Virus genome (UHGV): UHGV-1451962
Reading direction: 5' to 3' (one strand)
Length of the DNA stretch: 64,000 nt
Source: a virus
Shown: positions 26,965 through 39,891 of the stretch, piece by piece
Position numbering within the stretch: position 1 is the stretch's first letter
How the letters are laid out: each line of letters opens with the position of its first letter
Program-made: the position numbers and the translations under genes
The notes under the pieces: model-generated
The model's input: only the letters and a program-made list of their open reading frames with translations
What the model was told of the DNA's origin: nothing
The model's database searches: none

Positions 26965-27402
26965 TTATATAATATGATAATAAGGTTTTTCTTCATCAAA
27001 GATTTTCCATCTAAGAAAATCATCTAAAATAATTCCTATTAGACCTAGAATAAACCAAAGACAACTAAAAGATAAACATATTTGTCCTTTATAATTAAAA
27101 GGTAAATGTGAATAATCCCAAATATTAAGTTGTAATTGAATGTTTAAAATATATCCAAATAAAAATTCTAAACTTGTTATAATTGCGGTTCCAATTAATC
27201 CTTGAGCCAATAAAGACCAATTCCAAGGAATATTTTCATTTAAGCTACCTAAAATTAAAAAAGATAAACCGCCTAAGATAAACATTGACCAATGAGTATT
27301 TCCTGAATGTATATATGTTTTGTAAACAAATTCAATTAACCAGTAAATACTTCCGCCAATCAAAAATAATATAGAATTTCTAAAAAAAGAATTAATTTTC
27401 AT
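26965..27402 (-). CDS. polytopic membrane protein (about 4 TM helices), last gene of the DGR-side operon
   Basis: 145 aa with four long hydrophobic stretches: SILFLIGGSIYWLIEFVY, WSMFILGGLSFLILGSL, LLAQGLIGTAIITSLEFLFGYIL and ICLSFSCLWFILGLIGIIL. Its start overlaps the end of the upstream gene by 11 nt. Confidence 0.6.
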   Translation of the reverse strand: MKINSFFRNSILFLIGGSIYWLIEFVYKTYIHSGNTHWSMFILGGLSFLILGSLNENIPWNWSLLAQGLIGTAIITSLEFLFGYILNIQLQLNIWDYSHLPFNYKGQICLSFSCLWFILGLIGIILDDFLRWKIFDEEKPYYHII

Positions 27403-28051
27403 ATTTTAATTCTATGGCTTTAATTTCCTTATAATTTTTAGCAGTATAAATTTGTGTTTTATATTGTTGCATTTTTTTATAATAAGGATAAACAAAATCA
27501 GAAATAGCTAAAGCTAAAGCAGTCAAATTTTCAACTGTCCAAGATGTACATTCTTCTTGGCGAGCATGCCATTCTAATCTAGGATTCTCTGCTCCAGCCT
27601 GAACTGCCATAGAATATTGATTCATATTTAGGCTAATTTCTGATTGATCTTCTTCTGTAACTCCATATTGCTTTCCATCAATCCAAGTCAAAGGATTATT
27701 AATGAGGAAATTAGCGAAAGCTTTTTTATTTTCTTCTTGTTTCATTTTTTGATATTCTTCTAAAGAATAGTAATATGTTAATTCATTTTTTTCATTATCA
27801 TATTTATAAAAATTAGGTTCATAATCTTCTGGAATATTACCATCAAAAGATAAGATTCTTACTGCATCAATAGAACCTGTCATATCTGAATTAGCCAAAA
27901 TGAAATGGCTATTGCAATCTGAGCCTATTACTCCTGTAGCTTCACCTTCCGAGCAAGCAATGACAATACTTGGGTTGGATTGTAATTTGATGTAGCGGAT
28001 TTCCGCAAGGATATCGACTACTATATTTTCTCTATTGATTAATAAATACAT
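27392..28051 (-). CDS. hypothetical protein; C-terminus resembles DUF4376-type phage (fibre-associated) domains
   Basis: 219 aa. Its ATG overlaps the RT stop (TAATG). The C-terminal ..TWIDGKQYGVTEEDQSEISLNMNQYS..WTVENLTALALAISDFVYPYYKKMQQYKTQIYTAKNYKEIKAIEL pattern recalls DUF4376 (from memory). Confidence 0.4.
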   Translation of the reverse strand: MYLLINRENIVVDILAEIRYIKLQSNPSIVIACSEGEATGVIGSDCNSHFILANSDMTGSIDAVRILSFDGNIPEDYEPNFYKYDNEKNELTYYYSLEEYQKMKQEENKKAFANFLINNPLTWIDGKQYGVTEEDQSEISLNMNQYSMAVQAGAENPRLEWHARQEECTSWTVENLTALALAISDFVYPYYKKMQQYKTQIYTAKNYKEIKAIELKYEN

Positions 28052-29307
28052 TATAATATTTCAACTCCTTTAAATAATGAATGGAAATAATTATCAAGAT
28101 TTTGTATAATATAAAAAGTAGTACCTTTATTTATATGTTCTCTAAAACCTCGATATGATTCTTGAATTTCTATATCAGTTATTTTACCTTGTAGCCAAAG
28201 TTGGTGCATTTTTCTCATTTTTCTATATTGTCGCTTTATTTTCTTTTTAAATGGAGTTTGAATAATTTTATTCGTATTAGTTAAATAAAAATCCCATTTT
28301 AAATATTTAAATGGATTATGTTTATCCGAACGTCTTTTATGAGGATAATTATTTTTATCTAGTTTTATTGGACTAATTTTAATTATTTTAGTTTTTCTTT
28401 TGTTACATTTTAAATGTATTTTATTTAATTCATTTTCAATTTTATTAAGACATTCTTTTAAATAATCTTTGTCATTATGCAAAATATAAATATCGTCCAT
28501 ATAACGTCCATAATATTTTAAATGCAAATGCTCTTTTGCATAATGGTCAATTCCATTTAATGCCAATAAAGCTAATAATTGAGATGCTTGACTACCTAAA
28601 CCTAAACTTTTATGATTAAATTCATAATAAGTACAATTTTTATAAAATTGTTTAGGATAAATTATCTTATATTTTTGTTTTTTGATGATATAGTATTGTT
28701 TATTAGGAATAGGAACTGTATCTTTTGTGACTGAAAAACAAAAGGTATCAATAATATAATCAATTAATTTAAATACTCGTTTTTCTTTAATATAATGTTT
28801 TGCCATTTGCTTTAAAGAATTATGGTCTATTGAATCAAAAAATTTTTGAATATCAATTCTTAAACCATAAAAAGATTTTCCTAAACCATATGTTCTGTGC
28901 GCTGCTTGTAAATGTTTACGCACTTCTAGCAAAGCAAAATCAATTCCTTTTCCTTTTAATGTAGCACAATTATCATAAATAAATTTTGGAGTTAGTTCTG
29001 GAATAAGAACTTGCGAACATAATGTATTTTGTGCCAATCTGTCATAAATATGGCACGCTCTTATATCTCTGGGTTTGCCCCGCTCAATTATACTAAAACT
29101 GTTAAAAACTAATTGTTCATAACTGTCATTTTCTAATTGTTCTTTAAGCGTTAAGATGTTATTTAATCTATTTTCTTCAAAATTAACTGTACTATCTTTC
29201 CATCTTACGTTTCGGCAAATAGAATAAGAAGAATCATAAAAAGCGTCAAAATTACAAAAACGCTGGAAAAGATTTTCTTCTATAAAAAATTCTCCTTTTT
29301 TTATCAT
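28051..29307 (-). CDS. DGR-type reverse transcriptase
   Basis: 418 aa with the YMDD catalytic box (..YGRYMDDIYILHND..) and the SLGLGSQASQLL segment matching the G-x-x-x-S-Q signature of DGR RTs. RT motifs 1-2 are present (..ERGKPRDIRACHIYDRLAQ..). It lies 282 nt downstream of a TR that matches a VR. Confidence 0.9.
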   Translation of the reverse strand: MIKKGEFFIEENLFQRFCNFDAFYDSSYSICRNVRWKDSTVNFEENRLNNILTLKEQLENDSYEQLVFNSFSIIERGKPRDIRACHIYDRLAQNTLCSQVLIPELTPKFIYDNCATLKGKGIDFALLEVRKHLQAAHRTYGLGKSFYGLRIDIQKFFDSIDHNSLKQMAKHYIKEKRVFKLIDYIIDTFCFSVTKDTVPIPNKQYYIIKKQKYKIIYPKQFYKNCTYYEFNHKSLGLGSQASQLLALLALNGIDHYAKEHLHLKYYGRYMDDIYILHNDKDYLKECLNKIENELNKIHLKCNKRKTKIIKISPIKLDKNNYPHKRRSDKHNPFKYLKWDFYLTNTNKIIQTPFKKKIKRQYRKMRKMHQLWLQGKITDIEIQESYRGFREHINKGTTFYIIQNLDNYFHSLFKGVEIL

Positions 29308-29589
29308 GCGGTGCTAGATTGTGTGCTCTGACACGCACATCCGCAATCTTAATTAATTATCTGTATAGATAAAAGGTTAAATTCTCCTTAAATGAAAGCT
29401 ATCTATTATAATCTAAGTCTTTTATTTAATATTTCCTCTCCTTCTTGGTTTTAAAACCAATGCGTCCAGAAAATACCAAAATAGATGAGTTATAACATAG
29501 GTTATAATTTTCTGGGGTAACACTTAGTCGTCTCAGTCGATGTCGCCTGCGGCTCCATCACCAGAGACAGTTAGAGTTCTCATCTAATC
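29308..29589 (-). ncRNA. TR-RT spacer; probable structured part of the DGR RNA
   Basis: No ORF. It contains a GC-rich segment next to the TR with GTCTC(29530-34)/GAGAC(29564-68) and GATG/CATC pairings. It also contains nested stems CCAGAAAAT(29466-74)/ATTTTCTGG(29507-15) and TTATAAC(29490-96)/GTTATAA(29501-07), a 16-nt perfect palindrome at 29445-60, and a GC-rich element (29308-29345) abutting the RT ATG. Confidence 0.5.
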
Positions 29590-29693
29590 GGGCGCGAGGT
29601 AATTGTTGTTGTTGTAGTTGGTATTGTTCGCATTACCATCAGAGTTGACATTGCACACATTGTTCGTGTTGTTCGAGTTGTAGTAGCGAGACC
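29590..29693 (-). repeat. DGR template repeat (TR)
   Basis: 104-nt match to 30388..30491 with 83 identities. On the coding (-) strand it reads as about 15 AAY codons (..TAC AAC TCG AAC AAC ACG AAC AAT GTG TGC AAT GTC AAC..). It is non-coding and lies between the Avd-like ORF and the RT. Confidence 0.9.
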
Positions 29694-29726: not shown

Positions 29727-30191
29727 TTATTTGTATCGCTGAGAATAAATTAGATTATCTCTATTTATTCTATCAAGAAGATTTTGTTTTAATTTGTAAG
29801 TAAGTTTAGCAACATATTTGAAAGATTTATTTTTCTTTTTATTATTTAACCCATATTCATAAATACATAAATCTAATTGCCTTAAAATTGAATCACAATA
29901 TCTTATTGATTTATTAAAGTAATCTGCTCTTTCAACTAAAGTTTTTTTATTTTTTAGATTGATTAAACTAGCAGAGAAAGCATATCCATGTGCGTTTTTG
30001 GCACATTTTAAAATATCTGCACCAAAAGCTGAATAATAGTATGGATTACCAAGAATACCTGGTTTAATATGAGAACCATCATCTAATTCTTGATATGGAC
30101 GAACTAAAATTAATACTTGATGGACTAACTTTCTTGCATCATTTAAATAATCATTTTTAGATTGATGCCTATCTTTTTTTCTTACTGACAA
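29727..30191 (-). CDS. avd: Avd-like DGR accessory protein (by position, size and basic helical composition)
   Basis: 154-aa K/R-rich ORF with a TTG start 7 nt after AAAGGAGG. It occupies the canonical slot between target gene and TR. No sequence motif verified. Confidence 0.5.
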   Translation of the reverse strand: MSVRKKDRHQSKNDYLNDARKLVHQVLILVRPYQELDDGSHIKPGILGNPYYYSAFGADILKCAKNAHGYAFSASLINLKNKKTLVERADYFNKSIRYCDSILRQLDLCIYEYGLNNKKKNKSFKYVAKLTYKLKQNLLDRINRDNLIYSQRYK

Positions 30192-30254: not shown

Positions 30255-30315
30255 AGAAAAAAAATTTTTAGAAAAAATTTTTTTCCCAGAAAAGGTGAAA
30301 GCATTTTTATACTAT

Positions 30316-30341
30316 GGCATTGGCCCTTTTGGGCCAATGCC
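30316..30341. promoter_or_regulatory. perfect GC-rich hairpin/cruciform just 3' of the VR
   Basis: GGCATTGGCCC (30316-30326), TTTT loop, GGGCCAATGCC (30331-30341). It lies 29 nt beyond the target stop codon. No U-tract follows on either strand. Confidence 0.6.
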
Positions 30342-30369
30342 AATATAACCTTACTGTATAACTTTACAG

Positions 30370-32133
30370 TTATCCAATAACGAAAGCGGGCGCGAGGTAA
30401 CGGTAGTTGGCGTAGTAGGTAAAGTCCGCACCACCATCAGAGTCGACACGGCACACATAGCCCGTGTAGTCCGAGTAGTAGTTGCGAGACCGCTCCCAAT
30501 ACCATTTGGAATCTCCTGAACTGTTACCATTAGCATCTTGAATGTTTTTTATACGGGAGCTGTCACTTGTGTAATAATCATAAGCAGCATTATATCCTTT
30601 AGTACATTCTGCATTGGAAACAGTAGAATTAGCAGTGCTGATTGGAGAATAACTATCTAATCCCATTTCTCTCTCAGAAGGAATCCAAACAGTTTCGTTA
30701 TTATAACTAACATTAGCACTTCTATTATCATCCCAATTATCGCAAGTACCTTTAGATACTGTTTTTATAGATGCTTTAGCAGCACAAGCATTATAAAAAT
30801 TTTGACAATAACTTCTAGCATTAGAACCAATCCATTGTGCGCTATTATCACCAAAAGTAGTCATATTCGGCAAGAGATAAACACTATGAAAAGCTAAAGT
30901 TTTATCTCCATCTTTGTCATAGCCAATACAACGCATTGTAACAGCATTTGCTCCTAAAACATTAGTAGATAAATTCATCTTTTTAGTTTTACCAACTAAA
31001 GCTTGACGTTCTGAAGCAGAAGAATTGTTAAGCCAAGACTTTAAGCCAGCCCACCAAGAAGCATCTCCCGCAGCACTCTCATTTCCCCAAGTCCAATATG
31101 TAGCAGTAGCAGTAATTTTTTTATTCGCGGGAGTTGTATAATTGGTACTGGCTGCTATTGATACAGTAATAGTAGCAGTTCCCGCGGTTGTACCATTGCC
31201 TTTAATGGTAATTGTTTTACCGCTTACTGTTGCTGAAGCCACATTAGAATTAGTAGAAGTTACAGAAATTGTACCAGTAGAATTAGTGGTCACAGTAACT
31301 TTTACACCAGTAGAATAATTAGATGCGTCAATAGAAACAGTAGAAGTGCTTAGACTTAATGTTCCTGTTGCTTTTTGAATAGACCAATCAACATTTTTCG
31401 CGGTTGTTGTCTTATCAGGCCATCTGTAATTATTTTTAGGAGTAAAAGTAGCTGTATATTTTCCTGCATTAATTCCCGATGTAGTTCCTCCAATAGTCAT
31501 GTAACTTGTATTATAATTTGACCAATTTGGACTTTGCGAATTGGCGTTATAAGTTAAAGTTCCAGTTTGAGAAGGAATAGGAACTGTTTTTCTTTCTACT
31601 GTTACAGAAAAAGTAGTAGTTTTAGTAATACTATTTTCTGTATAAGAAACAGTAATTGTTTGAGTACCAACTGTATTTAAAACAGAAGGTGAAGTTGTCC
31701 AACCAGAAACAGTAGCGGTTTTACCATCAGAATAAGTGGCAGTAACAGACATTCCGGCAGATTCAAATGTCTCGCCATATTCATAAATTGTCTTAGTTGG
31801 TTTTGTGCTTGTGATGCTGGTTAGTGCATGGATAACAGTAACTGCTTGCTCGGCGGTACAAGTAACTCCTCCTTCAGAGTAAGTAATAGTAACTTTAGTT
31901 ACTCCATCAGTTAAAGGAGAAGGTGTTACAGTATATCCAGTTACCGCAGTAGAAGAAACAACAATATTATCAATGGCATAATTGGCAGTTATAACCATTC
32001 CTGTTGTTTCAAATTCTTGTCCAGCAACGTAAGATGTACGGTTTGGTGGAGTAGTAACTTCAATAGAGTGGAGTGCTATTGAGCTTCCGCCACCTTTTCC
32101 GCCTTGTTCAGTTAAAATGCATTTAACAGGCAA
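30370..32133 (-). CDS. DGR target protein: Ig-like repeats plus a C-terminal lectin-fold-like variable domain (putative receptor-binding or fibre protein)
   Basis: The track ORF 30370..32154 begins inside its own SD (TTG ATA AGG AGG). The more likely start is the TTG at 32133, 9 nt after GGAGG. There are repeated ~90-aa segments (..VTGYTVTPSPLTDGVTKVTITYSEGGVTCTAEQAVTV.. / ..VSGWTTSPSVLNTVGTQTITVSYTENSITKTTTFSVTV..). The C-terminus ..WYWERSRNYYSDYTGYVCRVDSDGGADFTYYANYRYLAPAFVIG is the VR. Confidence 0.85.
   Translation of the reverse strand: MPVKCILTEQGGKGGGSSIALHSIEVTTPPNRTSYVAGQEFETTGMVITANYAIDNIVVSSTAVTGYTVTPSPLTDGVTKVTITYSEGGVTCTAEQAVTVIHALTSITSTKPTKTIYEYGETFESAGMSVTATYSDGKTATVSGWTTSPSVLNTVGTQTITVSYTENSITKTTTFSVTVERKTVPIPSQTGTLTYNANSQSPNWSNYNTSYMTIGGTTSGINAGKYTATFTPKNNYRWPDKTTTAKNVDWSIQKATGTLSLSTSTVSIDASNYSTGVKVTVTTNSTGTISVTSTNSNVASATVSGKTITIKGNGTTAGTATITVSIAASTNYTTPANKKITATATYWTWGNESAAGDASWWAGLKSWLNNSSASERQALVGKTKKMNLSTNVLGANAVTMRCIGYDKDGDKTLAFHSVYLLPNMTTFGDNSAQWIGSNARSYCQNFYNACAAKASIKTVSKGTCDNWDDNRSANVSYNNETVWIPSEREMGLDSYSPISTANSTVSNAECTKGYNAAYDYYTSDSSRIKNIQDANGNSSGDSKWYWERSRNYYSDYTGYVCRVDSDGGADFTYYANYRYLAPAFVIG
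30388..30491 (-). repeat. DGR variable repeat (VR), encoding the last ~35 codons of the target protein
   Basis: Pairs with the TR. There are 21 differences; 20 are at positions where the TR coding strand has A, and 14 of 15 TR AAY codons differ. The shared GC-rich 3' end CCTCGCGCCCG is IMH-like. Confidence 0.9.
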
Positions 32134-32199
32134 GGTATAAGACCTCCTTATCAAGAATTATTATTAGAGTTTTAAAACTCCATCATTATTTATAGAATA

Positions 32200-32211
32200 A
32201 AGTACACCTTT
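32200..32211. repeat. left arm of a perfect 12-bp inverted repeat (AAAGTACACCTT)
   Basis: Reverse complement of 32384..32395. Together the arms bound a 196-bp segment in the divergent intergenic region. Confidence 0.9.
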
Positions 32212-32239
32212 TAGATTAATTGGGAACGTACTTTCCATA

Positions 32240-32287
32240 AAAAATGTAAAATTGGGAAAAGGATATAAAAATATCCTTTTCCCAATA
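32240..32287 (-). terminator. perfect 16-bp-stem hairpin that acts as a terminator only for leftward transcription
   Basis: ATTGGGAAAAGGATAT (32252-32267), AAAA loop, ATATCCTTTTCCCAAT (32272-32287). Read on the - strand it is followed by TTTACATTTTTT. Read on the + strand it is followed by ATAAAAATAT, with no U-tract. Confidence 0.5.
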
Positions 32288-32308
32288 TAAAAATATATTC
32301 TAAAAGTT

Positions 32309-32337
32309 TGGATATCTTATCCTTTTCATCTATACTT
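32309..32337 (+). promoter_or_regulatory. promoter directed at the 32425 fibre gene
   Basis: TTGGAT (32309-32314), a 17-nt spacer, then TATACT (32332-32337). It lies inside the IR-bounded segment. Confidence 0.5.
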
Positions 32338-32383
32338 AAAGATTATTTTAATTAATTTTCCTTAGATTGACCAATGTTTCATA

Positions 32384-32395
32384 AGGTGTACTTTT
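32384..32395. repeat. right arm of the 12-bp inverted repeat (AAGGTGTACTTT)
   Basis: Perfect reverse complement of 32200..32211. Confidence 0.9.
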
Positions 32396-32424: not shown

Positions 32425-34170
32425 ATGGCTGTTCAATGTGTACTTGTCGGAAAAGGCAAGGATGATGTATTTACTGCTGTTTATGGCGAAACTACATTTG
32501 ATAAAGTGTTAAAAGCTTATAATGAAAATAAAGTAGTTCAAGTGATTTATCAAAATCGTATTTATTATTTAGATAATACTACTGTTGTAGATTCTCCTGA
32601 AGCATTTTCTTTTATTTCTGCTTTTAGTAATCAAAATGATGAAGCTGGTGAAATAAAGCATTATGTAATAAGTTTAATGACAGGAGATAGTTGGTCTGGG
32701 CCTTTCTTACAGAAATCTACTCCAGCAACTCACGCGAATACTCATAGTAAAAATGGTGATGATCCACTTACCCCCGCAGATATTGGAGCTATGGAATTAT
32801 CAGAAAATGTTCTTAAACAATCAAATGAAGATATTACTTCTCAAGTAGCGCAAGCTTTATTTGGGGATTTAGTTCCTTTTAGCGGTGGAACCATGACTGG
32901 TTTGTTAAATGTTCTTACTCCTGTTAGAGATAGTAATGCTACTACTAAAAAGTATGTAGATGATGCTTTGAGTGAGAAAATTGGAATGGATGGCATTGGC
33001 GATTTGCATGTATGGAAGAAGACTATAATAACAAAACAGGAGATTCCAGCAAGTTTTACTTTAGGTGATGTACACTCTGGTTCGTTTCGTTTTGTTAGTG
33101 GTGAAACTAATGTGTTGTTAGTAGGTACTCCTAAAGTTAATGAGAGTGGTGTCGTTACCTTAACAAACTCTGCGCAGTATAATTTTAATTATAATTCTTC
33201 ATCTCCTAGTATATCTGATCTGCGAGGACAGTATTGCATGTTTACCATGATAGCCGATCAATTTTCTAGTTTTACTGCCAATAAAGTTTTTTATATACCC
33301 ACTGATGCAAACTATATTTCTTTATCAAGTTCTAAAAATATTACTAAATATCAAGATGTTAATGGTACACCTAAAATTCCTGCCGAAGTAACTACTACCT
33401 ATCCCGCATCTACTAATCCCAATGCGTATCAAGAGGGGAGCGATGCAAAACCAGCAGGATATGTACTTGGTAATGTGATAACAGGTTCATTTTGTATTGG
33501 TAATACAACAGCACCTACGAGAGCTGCTTATTATGTCGCATCTGATATTTCTGTATCTGATAATGGTGTTTTATCTATTTCAACACAAACAAATATAACT
33601 ATTGGTGGTAATTTTTTTGTATCTAGCCGTGATTTAATTGCTGGTAAATTTATACAAATTTATAATAAAGGGTCTATGTCTTCTGTTTTATCTGAACCAT
33701 TCACAACAGTACCAGGCCCAATTATTTATATTCCGAATGATGTAAACTTAACGTCTGGCGGTGATGGAAATTTAAATTTATATATTGATCGCTACCAACC
33801 TATTACTGGCTACGCTGCTATCCCCGCAGGCACCACTATTGAATATCTGGGGAAGTTGGGAGATAAGACTAGGGTAATAATTGGCTCGTATATTGGGACA
33901 GGGGTCTGCGGGGCAGAGAATCCGACCAAAATAAAAACGAGTTTTTTACCGAAACTTGTAGCAATAAATGGAGTAGGAAATACCGGCAGTACGGGCATTA
34001 TTCTGTTTTTTCGAGATATGAACTATGCGTTCTCAGAAATCGGCTCAAGTACCAACTTTAACTTTACTAATATAACCTGGTTATCAGACGGAGTACATTG
34101 GTATTCTAGCAAAGTCCTTATGCAGGGGAATAAGCAGGGGGCAATTTATAAATACATTGTTATCGGTTAA
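32425..34170 (+). CDS. tail fibre protein (581 aa)
   Basis: SD GAAAGGAGTTTTTAA-ATG. It contains ..THANTHSKNGDDPLTPADIGA.. and ..FSGGTMTGLLNVLTPVRDSNATTKKYVDDAL.., motifs typical of phage tail fibres (from memory). The C-terminal ~125 aa have a distinct, GC-richer composition. Confidence 0.7.
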   Translation: MAVQCVLVGKGKDDVFTAVYGETTFDKVLKAYNENKVVQVIYQNRIYYLDNTTVVDSPEAFSFISAFSNQNDEAGEIKHYVISLMTGDSWSGPFLQKSTPATHANTHSKNGDDPLTPADIGAMELSENVLKQSNEDITSQVAQALFGDLVPFSGGTMTGLLNVLTPVRDSNATTKKYVDDALSEKIGMDGIGDLHVWKKTIITKQEIPASFTLGDVHSGSFRFVSGETNVLLVGTPKVNESGVVTLTNSAQYNFNYNSSSPSISDLRGQYCMFTMIADQFSSFTANKVFYIPTDANYISLSSSKNITKYQDVNGTPKIPAEVTTTYPASTNPNAYQEGSDAKPAGYVLGNVITGSFCIGNTTAPTRAAYYVASDISVSDNGVLSISTQTNITIGGNFFVSSRDLIAGKFIQIYNKGSMSSVLSEPFTTVPGPIIYIPNDVNLTSGGDGNLNLYIDRYQPITGYAAIPAGTTIEYLGKLGDKTRVIIGSYIGTGVCGAENPTKIKTSFLPKLVAINGVGNTGSTGIILFFRDMNYAFSEIGSSTNFNFTNITWLSDGVHWYSSKVLMQGNKQGAIYKYIVIG

Positions 34171-34730: not shown

Positions 34731-35357
34731 GTGAAAAAGGTGTTATATGGTTATGCAAGAGTTTCTTCCCGCGACCAAAATATAGATAGACAAATAATTG
34801 CATTAAAAGAGGTCGGCGTAGAAGAAGAAAATATCTTCATAGATAAACAATCAGGTAAAGATTTTAATAGACCTTCTTATCAAGAATTATTAGAAACAAT
34901 TAAAACAGGAGATATGGTAATTATAAAATCCATAGATAGATTAGGTCGAAATTATTCAGAAATTTTAGAACAGTGGAGAATTATTACTAAAGTTCTGAAT
35001 GTAGATATTAAAGTTATTGATATGCCGTTACTCGATACCTCCTACGGGGATGGTACATTAAATAACTTTATAGCTGATTTAGTTTTACAAATTCTCTCTT
35101 TTCAGGCAGAACAAGAGAGAATTTGTATTAAACAGCGACAAGCAGAAGGAATAGCTGCTGCAAAACAAAAAGGAGTTAAATTTGGCCGACCCCGCAAACA
35201 GCTTCCTTCTAATTTTGAAGATTTATATTATAGATATTTAAATAATGAACCAGTGGATAGATTATCAAAAGATTGTAAAGGATTATCTAAATCTACTTTG
35301 CGGTTGCGACTACAAGAACGTCATTCTAAAGATAAAGCATTGGGTGTAATTATTTAA
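34731..35357 (+). CDS. small serine recombinase (resolvase/invertase family)
   Basis: 208 aa with a GTG start after SD GAGGTGAAAAAG. The N-terminal catalytic region is VLYGYARVSSRDQNIDRQ...DRLGRN, and there is a C-terminal HTH-like region after ..GVKFGRPRK... The size and layout match the Hin/Gin/resolvase type, not a large serine integrase. Confidence 0.85.
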   Translation: MKKVLYGYARVSSRDQNIDRQIIALKEVGVEEENIFIDKQSGKDFNRPSYQELLETIKTGDMVIIKSIDRLGRNYSEILEQWRIITKVLNVDIKVIDMPLLDTSYGDGTLNNFIADLVLQILSFQAEQERICIKQRQAEGIAAAKQKGVKFGRPRKQLPSNFEDLYYRYLNNEPVDRLSKDCKGLSKSTLRLRLQERHSKDKALGVII

Positions 35358-38877: not shown

Positions 38878-38898
38878 ATTAGCTTCCCCTATTTTTTA
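38861..38898. terminator. shared bidirectional terminator at the convergence of the late (+) and replication (-) arms
   Basis: ATAGGGGAAGCT (38861-38872) pairs with AGCTTCCCCTAT (38881-38892). It is A-rich to the left and T-rich to the right. Confidence 0.75.
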
Positions 38899-39308
38899 CT
38901 TTCTATATCACGAATCGGCAATTCACAAACTCGTTCATAAAAATCCTGTCCTCGACCATTGCCTTTTAATCCTTCATGGTAAGTTTTCCACATAGCAGTA
39001 AGTGCAGAAAATTCATCAGACGTCAAATAACCTCTTTCTAAGTATTCTCGACAAAGATTTATTAGTCTTTCACTATAATCTTCTTTTAACGCTTCAAATT
39101 TCTTATTCTCTATATCAATCTGTTCTTGAAGAGGATTCAATTTTTCTTCTATTGTTTCATCTAATTTATTTTCATTTAATTTTTCAAATGCTTCTTTATA
39201 CTGCTGAAATTTTTTATCTAAATTTCTAAAATAAGCTAATAAACCAGCAGAAATCAAACCAAAAATAATTTCAAACCAATGTTCGACAAAGAAGGCGCCT
39301 GTTATCAT
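38889..39308 (-). CDS. hypothetical membrane protein (N-terminal TM plus coiled coil); start revised
   Basis: TTAAGGAGGTTGAAAAATCTT-ATG at 39308; the track start at 39395 lacks an SD and overlaps ruvC. It has the hydrophobic helix WFEIIFGLISAGLLAYF followed by an E/K-rich coiled region. Confidence 0.5.
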   Translation of the reverse strand: MITGAFFVEHWFEIIFGLISAGLLAYFRNLDKKFQQYKEAFEKLNENKLDETIEEKLNPLQEQIDIENKKFEALKEDYSERLINLCREYLERGYLTSDEFSALTAMWKTYHEGLKGNGRGQDFYERVCELPIRDIESKK

Positions 39309-39381
39309 AAGATTTTTCAACCTCCTTAAATTGTTCATTACATTTAAAAATAGTTTGAAATTAATTAATATATTTTGTCCT

Positions 39382-39891
39382 TTAAGACCAATCAAATCCT
39401 CTATTTAAAGCATGATAACCAATACAAATTGCATCAGCTTCATCTTGCGTAGGTTTTATTTTGTATTTATTAATTACAAAAGCCTGCGCGTTTTTTTTCT
39501 GCTCATTTCTAATTTTCCCAGTTACACCGCAAGTTTTTTTCCAAGCAGAAGAAGAAACAACATCATATTTAATGTTTTCTTTTTCCAATAAACTTAATAA
39601 TGCTCCTTGTACATGGGCAAGTTTTTTATAAGTAACTACTCCAAAATCTTTCGCTTTTATCTTTTTGCCATTTGGTTCATATTCTTGTAGTTGTATATCT
39701 TCAATAATAACTTCTACATCCCCATTTAGAGTATCAATTATATTCTCTAACCAATCTCTTAATTTAGAAATTCTTAGCATATATTCTCCTTCTGGATGAA
39801 TATGACCATAAGTAATTAACTCTTGGCCTTTAAATACAGCATATCCAGTAATGGCTGTACTTTGATCTAAGGCCAAGAGAAATTTAGACAT
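39382..39891 (-). CDS. ruvC: RuvC-like Holliday junction resolvase
   Basis: N-terminal ..LALDQSTAITGYAVF.. and C-terminal ..TQDEADAICIGYHAL.. acidic catalytic motifs. 169 aa. Confidence 0.75.
   Translation of the reverse strand: MSKFLLALDQSTAITGYAVFKGQELITYGHIHPEGEYMLRISKLRDWLENIIDTLNGDVEVIIEDIQLQEYEPNGKKIKAKDFGVVTYKKLAHVQGALLSLLEKENIKYDVVSSSAWKKTCGVTGKIRNEQKKNAQAFVINKYKIKPTQDEADAICIGYHALNRGFDWS

Follow-up and report, generated by a model that had tools for sequence, protein, structure and literature searches.

The gene at 30370-32133 is the single target of a DGR that lies on the same strand. We favour, with a probability of about 75%, the reading that its product is the protein diversified by an active phage DGR, a lectin-tipped arm that a short N-terminal peptide would dock on the virion. 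The first-pass annotation of this DNA had already proposed a DGR target with a variable C-terminus, and this proposal was borne out: in the window (the whole 64-kb stretch of DNA that was analysed), a 108-nt repeat pairs a VR at the end of the gene with a TR, so that the C-terminus is a genuine VR.

The VR/TR pair and the surrounding cassette

The target gene and the elements of the DGR cassette are arranged as follows.

30370-32133, minus strand: DGR target gene, 587 aa from the TTG at 32133, with its stop codon at 30370-30372
30384-30491, minus strand: VR, covering the codons of the last ~36 residues; these make up the C-terminal beta-strands of the predicted lectin fold
30316-30341, minus strand: GC-rich hairpin with an 11-12 bp stem and an AAAA loop, about 40 nt downstream of the VR
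29727-30191, minus strand: Avd-sized accessory ORF, 154 aa, between the target and the TR, assigned by position and size only
29586-29693, minus strand: TR, with 15 AAY codons and 38 adenines, none of them at codon position 3
28051-29307, minus strand: DGR reverse transcriptase (RT), 418 aa (RVT_1, 7e-15; phrog_1423, 3.4e-75)
27392-28051, minus strand: DUF4376 protein (Pfam), the next gene downstream of the RT, with overlapping stop/start
26965-27402, minus strand: small CmpB-like membrane protein (Pfam), downstream of the DUF4376 gene with overlapping stop/start

The VR and TR differ at 22 of 108 positions, all of them at codon position 1 or 2. Mismatches are directed at TR adenines in 21 of the 22 cases (hypergeometric p = 4e-11 for at least 21 of 22 mismatches on 38 TR adenines), the single exception being position 30483, where the TR has T and the VR has A. 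The TR has the potential to yield 2.9e22 peptides, with no possible stop codon. The whole 64-kb window was searched for a second VR matching the TR and none was found. A sister contig (L001) that is 97% identical to the window has an identical TR (0/108 differences), whereas its VR differs from that of the window at 18 of 108 positions, 17 of which are at TR adenines, compared with 2.9% divergence elsewhere. An identical TR paired with a VR that has diverged mostly at TR adenines indicates that the element is active. Column entropy among homologues of the target is also highest at the codons that contain TR adenines.

The RT translation, read directly, contains LGSQASQ ([I/L]GxxxSQ-type) and YMDD motifs, and the TR sits about 280 nt upstream of the RT start. 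The RT, TR, VR and VR-proximal hairpin are all on one strand. The region around the hairpin (30300-30384) has a DNA folding energy of -22.8 kcal/mol (z -7.7), and there is no T-run 3' of the stem; the hairpin is a candidate DGR target-recognition hairpin/cruciform or terminator-like stem. The Avd-sized ORF gave no match in sequence searches against Pfam, NCBIfam and the PDB, and has no detectable similarity to known Avd proteins. At its position a gene of 154-164 aa was called in L001 and in a second related contig (L004), and no gene was called in the ~1-kb gap found there in two others (L002 and L003). The order of the DUF4376 and CmpB-like genes is kept in L001, L002 and L004. By analogy with the established biology of the BPP-1 DGR (Mtd/Brt/Avd), the TR would be transcribed and then copied, with adenine-specific misincorporation, by the RT together with the Avd-sized protein; the resulting cDNA would replace the VR, giving up to about 3e22 tip variants and never a stop codon.

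Domain architecture and base composition of the target

The target ORF is present at 30370-32154 on the minus strand and its C-terminus reads exactly as first quoted (...KWYWERSRNYYSDYTGYVCRVDSDGGADFTYYANYRYLAPAFVIG). The suggestion that translation starts at the TTG at 32133 proved sound. AAGGAGG precedes this codon with a 9-nt spacer, GAAGGAGGT and the TTG are both kept in six diverged relatives, and close homologues of the target are called at 587 aa. The following features were annotated along the gene.

32143-32149, minus strand: Shine-Dalgarno sequence AAGGAGG for the TTG 32133 start, read directly
32080-32133, minus strand: N-terminal peptide M-PVKCILTEQ and Gly-rich linker GGKGGGSS, residues 1-18, a candidate virion-docking tag
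31828-32079, minus strand: Big_3 Ig-like domain 1, residues 19-102 (Pfam E 0.0026 on the fragment; AF2 beta-sandwich, pLDDT about 90)
31588-31827, minus strand: Big_3 Ig-like domain 2, residues 103-182 (PF07523, 3.1e-11)
31369-31587, minus strand: third small beta-sandwich, residues 183-255 (no Pfam family; AF2 strands, pLDDT 93-96)
31099-31368, minus strand: fourth beta-sandwich, residues 256-345 (Big_2-like by eye; no Pfam match)
30373-31098, minus strand: C-terminal DUF6273 domain with a C-type-lectin fold, residues 346-587

Homologues of the target gene number about 3,000. A sequence search of the whole protein against the PDB returned marginal Big_3-like matches only, and an NCBIfam scan of the target and its 581-aa neighbour (see below) returned nothing meaningful. 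A megablast search of the 8.5-kb region against GenBank phages found no match, and a tRNA scan of the window found no suppressor tRNA.

The stalk is Ig-like, as anticipated, and is made up of the two Big_3 domains and two other beta-sandwiches. The first-pass annotation had described it as repeated segments of ~90 aa rich in beta structure. This is correct for residues 19-102 and 103-182 (587-aa numbering), which are true repeats (39% identical, E 2e-12), but the two further domains are not detectably similar. Big_3 domain 2 scores 43.8 bits against a GA of 21.2 and is modelled by AF2 with a pLDDT of 94-96. The third beta-sandwich has homologues among the repeated modules of two other DGR targets, Taranis gp68 and Pioen orf24. 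The full-length AF2 model (pLDDT 90.4, pTM 0.53) is an elongated chain of separate domains.

The tip had been likened to DUF1566/DUF6273-type domains, and only the second of these names was retained. DUF6273 (PF19789) scores 35.4 bits on the isolated C-terminal 242 aa, above the gathering threshold of 23.5, but DUF1566 gives no match on the isolated domain even at E up to 10. The full-length Pfam scan did not report DUF6273; PF19789 is precomputed on most homologues. A lectin-like fold at the VR had also been expected, and structure prediction finds such a fold (C-terminal domain model, pLDDT 91, pTM 0.90). The tip resembles CTLD, TvpA or FGE-type domains in structure and has its VR in the C-terminal strands, which places it in the C-type-lectin (CLec) class of DGR targets. 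Publications on gut phages describe DUF6273 as a C-lectin domain of DGR targets (PMC10743442, PMC11792537, bioRxiv 10.1101/2024.10.15.618418). The tip might bind either a structure on the bacterial surface or a glycan of host or mucus origin.

The base composition of the gene had been called unlike that of the rest of the cassette, with hand counts of G+C given for two 60-nt lines. Both counts were too high by two (26 rather than 28 at 31681-31740, and 14 rather than 16 at 28321-28380 in the RT), but the trend is real, with a GC content of 37.6% in the target, 24.2% in the RT, 24.9% in the Avd-like ORF and 30.3% in the whole window. The contrast between 37.6% and 24-25% could be taken to mean that the target came in recently as a foreign module and had the DGR grafted onto it, as could the clear shuffling of stalk and tip domains among phages (some loci match only residues 14-346, others only residues 340-587). 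We consider such an acquisition highly improbable, because the contrast is mostly an effect of amino acid composition and does not point to a separate origin. Most of the excess falls on codon position 2 (GC2 of 0.536, compared with 0.25-0.28 in the RT and Avd-like ORF) in a protein that is 16% Thr, 12% Ser, 9% Ala and 8% Gly. GC3 of the target, 0.21, falls among the values of other structural genes and differs from that of the RT and Avd-like ORF; outside the VR it is 0.165-0.198, inside the 0.12-0.32 spanned by structural genes elsewhere in the window. Replacement of its adenines accounts for the high GC of the VR (57%), three further genes of the window exceed the target in GC, and synteny of the whole cassette is kept down to 54% protein identity.

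The N-terminal peptide and the divergent fibre-like gene

The region upstream of the target contains a second gene and an intergenic region with the following features.

32425-34170, plus strand: fibre-like neighbour, 581 aa, starting MAVQCVL, divergently transcribed, with a weak match to the virion structural protein phrog_2824
32199-32394, no strand assigned: intergenic control region, with AAGGTGTACTTT once upstream of each divergent gene

The first-pass annotation saw no obvious anchoring N-terminus in the target. This overlooked a conserved peptide of seven residues followed by a Gly linker, which the target has in common with the fibre-like neighbour. Residues 1-16 of the target are modelled as disordered (AF2, pLDDT below 50). 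The motif M-P-V-K-C-I-L with its Gly linker is present in all 30 of 30 related loci from IMG/VR, and in a six-frame translation of the window a KCIL-type motif occurs in the target and the divergent neighbour only. Relatives of the neighbour begin M/V-S-[LI]-KCILQGQ or MECILTGQ in 26 of 30 loci, and the bodies that follow the peptide are of at least five unrelated kinds. We considered whether these bodies might be invertible cassettes within one genome and found no support for this: each of 11 loci, inspected over about 5 kb on either side of the target where the contig reached that far, contains a single body type, its own. The pattern of the neighbour is therefore one of module exchange between genomes.

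The two copies of AAGGTGTACTTT follow the orientation of their own genes (32199-32210 on the minus strand and 32383-32394 on the plus strand). Between them, at about 32251-32286, is a perfect 15/16-bp palindrome. The palindrome is kept in two related loci, and an equivalent inverted 13-mer, AAGTGTACTTTTT, is kept in five others. The possibility that the N-terminal motif common to the two genes is really a DNA inverted repeat, part of an invertible switch operated by the adjacent serine invertase, was rejected: the stretches that encode the motif match at only about 10/15 positions and differ synonymously, and no convincing inverted repeat bracketing the intergenic region was found.

The target comes after a run of large structural genes, among them those for a phrog_1887 tail protein and a phrog_2729 virion structural protein. 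The window also encodes Pol III alpha, DnaB, gyrase and NrdD, and the phage appears to be large and replication-autonomous. We propose that the N-terminal peptide is a candidate virion docking tag common to the target and its neighbour, because the target gene ends the tail-gene block, because the same peptide heads a divergent neighbour that swaps modules, and because both divergent genes carry the same upstream DNA motif. In our best guess it would attach the protein to the virion, with the tail or baseplate as the most likely site. Indirect pointers to a virion location are also the GC3 of the target, which matches that of structural genes, and the place of its closest annotated relatives after baseplate genes. 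The protein would consist of a 7-10-residue peptide, a flexible Gly-rich linker, a rigid stalk of four beta-sandwiches and a variable lectin tip and, docked in this way, may act as an auxiliary, rapidly re-targetable receptor-binding or adhesion arm.

The same architecture might instead belong to a Hoc-like decoration protein, whose Ig stalk would project from the capsid and whose tip would adhere to mucus or host glycans rather than to a bacterial receptor. Hoc-type decoration proteins typically carry arrays of Ig-like domains, and a comparison with Hoc has been drawn for two related DGR targets, tentaclin and Mushu (PMC10743442, PMC11792537). Both the elongated model of separate domains and a predicted secondary structure that shows no fibre shaft of coiled-coil or beta-helix type fit this location. 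Foldseek matches in BFVD do not separate a tail from a capsid location: the viral matches include, among many, 'Highly immunogenic outer capsid protein' and Ig-inserted major capsid proteins, but the best are tail-collar and long tail fibre proteins. Capsid decoration is unlikely, however, given that the gene is at the distal end of the tail-gene block, beside a fibre-like gene with the same N-terminal peptide and upstream motif, that its nearest annotated relatives are in a tail-fibre position after baseplate genes, and that it has no similarity to the Hoc capsid-binding domain.

A location off the virion is more doubtful still. The protein would then be a soluble, secreted or cell-associated variable binder that acts during infection or lysogeny, for the host or against competitors. 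Prophage DUF6273/tentaclin proteins are reported from the Faecalibacterium secretome without visible particles (2026 preprint, bioRxiv 10.64898/2026.05.08.723808), and an IgA peptidase that bacteria anchor in their cell wall likewise contains DUF6273 (PMC12402451). On the other hand, direct reading of the N-terminus shows no signal peptide, lipobox or transmembrane segment, the N-terminal peptide is shared with a modular fibre-like gene, and the target gene is embedded among structural genes of an apparently large, replication-autonomous phage.

If docking on the virion is correct, the short peptide and glycine linker are a candidate attachment for DGR targets without a recognisable anchoring domain. 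Such a tag would help to annotate the attachment of DGR targets across gut viromes and could be exploited for displaying engineered binding domains on phage. More tentatively, M-x-x-[KQ]-C-[IV]-L plus a Gly linker might be a portable plug-in tag by which two arms use the same virion socket. One arm would be a fibre whose body is exchanged horizontally and the other a lectin-tipped arm rewritten by the DGR, with both co-regulated from the shared bidirectional control region. A tag of this kind would point to a general and undescribed attachment mode for DGR targets.

In other gut-phage clades, related DGR targets begin with analogous tags that combine a short peptide with a Gly run (LVFNMVGG, VYNMVGG, KVFNLSGG and WGPFYAGG).

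Comparison with known DGR targets

Gut-phage DGR targets that join a DUF6273/C-lectin domain to an Ig stalk have been published before. Judged as a DGR target, the gene is unremarkable: it is one more well-supported and demonstrably active case, from a large, uncultured clade of low-GC gut phages, and it confirms DUF6273 as a C-type-lectin variable scaffold. What is new here is the conserved N-terminal peptide and Gly linker, common to the target and its fibre-like neighbour.

The C-type-lectin scaffold lets TvpA and Mtd tolerate massive variation on the ligand-binding face. TvpA (Treponema denticola, PDB 2Y3C) and Mtd (Bordetella phage BPP-1, PDB 1YU0) resemble the target in having a C-type-lectin fold with the VR in its C-terminal strands, and follow the same mutagenesis logic of AAY codons and adenine-specific changes. 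The target has no detectable sequence similarity to either protein. It has neither the sequence or profile similarity nor the trimeric beta-prism/beta-sandwich N-terminus that characterise the Mtd family; Mtd has a beta-prism and beta-sandwich trimerisation region where the target has a stalk of four beta-sandwiches. TvpA, unlike the target, is a bacterial lipoprotein with an FGE-type subfold. A DUF6273 domain is also found at the N-terminus of ThomasA, the Thomasclavelia ramosa IgA peptidase (PDB 9QA6), but this is a cell-wall-anchored protease and the domain is not reported as a DGR target (PMC12402451).

Tentaclins (Baykov et al. 2023, PMC10743442) are gut-phage DGR targets with a VR-bearing DUF6273 C-lectin and Ig-like domains. 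They begin with the C-lectin at the N-terminus, continue with Ig domains and end in an Ig domain that serves as the anchor (PMC10743442). The target reverses this order, with the stalk at residues 19-345, the lectin at residues 346-587 and the N-terminal peptide as the candidate anchor, and so lacks the domain order of the tentaclin family.

The DUF6273 DGR targets of the Faecalibacterium phages FP_Taranis (gp68), Roos and Pioen (orf24) resemble the target in that a series of small beta-sandwich modules leads up to a DUF6273 domain at the C-terminus, in having a VR at the extreme C-terminus and in a cassette order of target, small ORF(s) and RT. Taranis gp68 and Pioen orf24 are the closest annotated relatives (31-33% identity over residues 178-586), and their genes sit right after the baseplate J/I genes. 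The targets of these phages are without the two N-terminal Big_3 domains and the KCIL peptide. The phages are also smaller (~52-54 kb, with P2/T4-type baseplate genes in FP_Taranis), whereas the phage studied here belongs to a clade of ~100-150 kb with its own replication machinery. The design of a short N-terminal peptide and a Gly-rich linker is found in the Taranis target (MAWGPFYAGGGGGSSGG). Pioen orf24 has the same kind of Gly linker, with an N-terminal domain of ~200 aa in place of the short peptide, and this domain is reported to be similar to the A511 gp105 tail-fibre protein (PMC11792537).

The retroelement and its variable repeat

The variable protein is encoded at the 5' end of a minus-strand cassette with the following parts.

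Features of the diversity-generating retroelement (DGR) cassette
32154 to 30370, minus strand: target ORF, 594 aa as called
30384-30491, minus strand: VR (variable repeat), 108-nt direct-repeat copy at the 3' end of the target ORF
30316-30341: GC-rich hairpin with an AAAA loop (z = -7.7), ~40 nt past the VR, without a T-run after the stem
30191..29727, minus strand: small ORF (154 aa, Avd-sized) downstream of the target ORF
Between the 154-aa ORF and the reverse transcriptase (RT), same strand: 420-nt non-coding stretch
29586-29693, minus strand: TR (template repeat), 108-nt direct-repeat copy inside the non-coding stretch
29307..28051, minus strand: RT, 418 aa (RVT_1, 7e-15; phrog_1423 'Reverse transcriptase', 3.4e-75)
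Within 26965-28051, minus strand: DUF4376 protein, 219 aa
Within 26965-28051, minus strand: small multi-pass membrane protein (PF06541 CmpB-like, phrog_20274)

The two repeat copies are 80% identical over 108 nt. On the coding strand the TR base is an adenine at 21 of the 22 mismatches (p = 4e-11 for at least 21 of 22 falling on the 38 TR adenines by chance), and all 22 lie at codon position 1 or 2 of the target ORF. This bias towards TR adenines and the first two codon positions indicates that 29586-29693 and 30384-30491 are the TR and VR of a DGR and, with the linked RT, bears out the first-pass annotation of the protein as a DGR target. The TR has 15 AAY codons and no adenine at third codon positions, and adenine mutagenesis is therefore computed to allow ~3e22 peptides without ever creating a stop codon. 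A search across the 64-kb window found no second VR. The hairpin past the VR resembles a DGR target-recognition hairpin and is a candidate for that role.

A close sister contig (L001; Logan ERR1136729) is ~97% identical to the window across the 4.1-kb cassette. Between the two, the TR is unchanged (0/108 differences) while the VR differs at 18 of 108 positions, 17 of them at TR adenines, which argues that the element is active; divergence in the remainder of the cassette is 2.9%. The sole VR/TR mismatch away from a TR adenine, at position 30483 (A in the window VR, T in the TR and in the sister contig), reflects either an ordinary substitution or a rare event outside adenines. In an alignment of 59 homologues, the final 40 residues show their highest column entropy at the TR-adenine codons, and the WERSR and LAPAF motifs flanking these codons are invariant.

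Overlapping stop and start codons couple translation of the DUF4376 and CmpB-like genes to that of the RT. Both genes accompany the cassette in all relatives examined; to our knowledge, neither is a recognised DGR component.

Start, stalk and tip of the target protein

The target almost certainly starts at TTG 32133, as had been proposed, since AAGGAGG (32143-32149) lies 9 nt upstream, the same layout is kept in six diverged relatives and close homologues are called at 587 aa. An AlphaFold2 model from a 59-sequence alignment (mean pLDDT 90.4) gave the following architecture.

Predicted architecture of the target protein (587-aa numbering)
Residues 1-16: disordered segment
Residues 19-102: beta-sandwich 1, Big_3
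Residues 103-182: beta-sandwich 2, Big_3
Residues 183-255: beta-sandwich 3, no Pfam family
Residues 256-345: beta-sandwich 4, no Pfam family
Residues 346-587: alpha/beta C-terminal domain

The tandem Ig-like repeats suggested at first pass hold for sandwiches 1 and 2, which match Big_3 (3e-11 and 0.0026) and, at 39% identity to each other (E 2e-12), are a genuine tandem duplication; sandwiches 3 and 4 have no detectable similarity to them. The C-terminal domain scanned alone matches DUF6273 at 35.4 bits (Pfam threshold 23.5), a match missed by the full-length scan, and PF19789 is precomputed on most homologues. Modelled alone, it reaches pLDDT 91 and pTM 0.90. The DUF6273 match and this confident model together support the expected lectin-like tip, with a predicted C-type-lectin fold whose last four strands are encoded by the VR.

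Hand counts of G+C in 31681-31740 and 28321-28380 (28 and 16) were each two too high (26 and 14 per 60 nt), but the contrast is real: GC content is 37.6% in the target, 24.2% in the RT, 24.9% in the 154-aa ORF and 30.3% in the window. Codon position 2 accounts for most of the excess (0.536 versus 0.25-0.28), because the protein is rich in Thr (16%), Ser (12%), Ala (9%) and Gly (8%). GC3 outside the VR (0.165-0.198) falls within the 0.12-0.32 range of the window's other structural genes, the RT and 154-aa ORF forming the low extreme; replacement of adenines brings the VR itself to 57% GC. The target's composition thus looks like a structural-gene profile, with no evidence of foreign origin. Short ORFs overlapping it in other frames (30351-30536, minus strand; 31142-31318, plus strand) look like side effects of its skewed composition rather than supported genes.

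An N-terminal peptide shared with the divergent neighbour

The first-pass annotation saw no obvious anchor, yet a conserved peptide occupies the N-terminus (residues 1-18, M-PVKCILTEQ-GGKGGGSS). Across the window's six frames, the pattern [PAVIT]-[KQR]-C-[IVL]-L has just two matches, both at residues 2-7: in the target and in the 581-aa divergent fibre-like neighbour (32425-34170, plus strand; MAVQCVL...). The two DNA stretches differ synonymously, which places the conservation at the protein level. All 30 full-length IMG/VR relatives have a target that begins (TTG)-PKCIL-[AT]EQ and continues into a Gly run, and in 26/30 the neighbour begins M/V-S-[LI]-KCILQGQ or MECILTGQ.

The neighbour's N-terminal nonapeptide is constant (S-[LI]-KCILQGQ in the equivalents from related contigs L007-L034, MAVQCVLVG in the window). 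Downstream of it the different genomes carry at least five unrelated sequences, one per genome, which looks like between-genome exchange of receptor-binding modules. An unchanging N-terminal peptide in front of swapped fibre-like bodies is a classic attachment-module signature. The body is sometimes split into several ORFs or trailed by a DUF4376 protein. We infer, as a candidate reading, that the peptide docks the target on the virion, probably on the tail, and that target and neighbour are co-regulated.

Features between and beyond the divergent genes
32199-32210, minus strand: AAGGTGTACTTT copy 1, upstream of the target in its orientation
~32251-32286: perfect palindrome ATTGGGAAAAGGATAT/ATATCCTTTTCCCAAT, between the two AAGGTGTACTTT copies
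32383-32394, plus strand: AAGGTGTACTTT copy 2, upstream of the neighbour in its orientation
34731-35357, plus strand: serine recombinase/DNA invertase (Resolvase, 3e-30; phrog_125 'DNA invertase', 7.5e-51)

The window contains no further copy of AAGGTGTACTTT beyond these two. Relatives retain a matching inverted 13-mer, the motif and the palindrome being kept in different subsets, and 32199-32394 is a candidate bidirectional control region. The invertase lies just downstream of the neighbour, as in sister contigs L001, L002 and L004; a search for inverted repeats or alternative cassettes that it might act on gave nothing convincing.

Relatives, recoding and known DGR targets

The phage is large and low in GC, with Pol III alpha, DnaB, RecJ, ligase, gyrase A and NrdD, and carries a run of large plus-strand structural genes upstream of the cassette, some of which match virion structural and tail PHROGs. 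The target family comprises ~3,000 proteins at E < 1e-3, many from contigs of 75-148 kb; among GenBank phages the cassette region has no DNA-level match. The order target, TR, RT, ~220-aa ORF (the one matching DUF4376 in the window) and CmpB-like membrane protein is kept down to 54% protein identity, as are the divergent neighbour and serine invertase. The small ORF between target and TR is called in L001 and L004 and not in L002 or L003.

Multiple in-frame TAG codons occur in the target, RT and neighbour genes of sister contigs L002, L003 and L004 and many of L007-L034. TAG is the only in-frame stop inside sister genes (e.g. L004:9869-11638, L002:12795-14027), and the glutamine of KCILTEQGG in the window is TAG in L004 and L008 (KCILAE-TAG-GG). 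The pattern points to recoding of TAG to Gln in relatives, which accounts for the many 'truncated' 545-aa homologue calls. Window genes are open in code 11, with TAG ending 1 of 49 long ORFs (38889..39395) and no tRNA genes present.

A full HMMER search of 1.84 billion cluster representatives placed the tip domain in 166 clusters, C-terminal, internal or N-terminal; the proteins that carry it reach ~1,035 aa, and many are fragments. Some IMG/VR loci share only the stalk with the target and others only the tip; this and the varying tip position show that the domains are shuffled. Related loci L059/L061 and L079-L084 have the same peptide, Gly linker and Big_3 stalk, but their hypervariable C-terminal tip is of another kind (ending ...GSRLQKLPSAA or ...GCRLQERPPKAA) and visibly differs between near-identical contigs; they thus combine the same stalk with another class of DGR tip.

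Relatives at 43-51% identity, from smaller phages, carry other short peptides before the Gly run (MNGLVFNMVGGGGGG, MGNVYNMVGGGGG and MSNVGKVFNLSGGGG). The closest annotated relatives come from Faecalibacterium phages Taranis, Roos and Pioen, whose DGR targets (31-33% identity, residues 178-586) are positioned just after baseplate J/I genes. Taranis gp68 begins MAWGPFYAGGGGGSSGG, whereas the Pioen target has an N-terminal domain of ~200 aa, reportedly A511 gp105-like (PMC11792537), joined through the same kind of Gly linker.

Overall, the original observation is confirmed and its interpretation supported with minor corrections: the protein is the target of an active DGR, belongs to the DUF6273 C-lectin class and has a stalk of four beta-sandwich domains. 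This class, combined with Ig-like domains, is already known from gut phages (PMC10743442; PMC11792537; bioRxiv 10.1101/2024.10.15.618418), the tentaclins having the opposite domain order (PMC10743442). The conserved N-terminal peptide and Gly linker, shared with a modular fibre gene, seem to be the one feature so far undescribed, and are open to direct testing.
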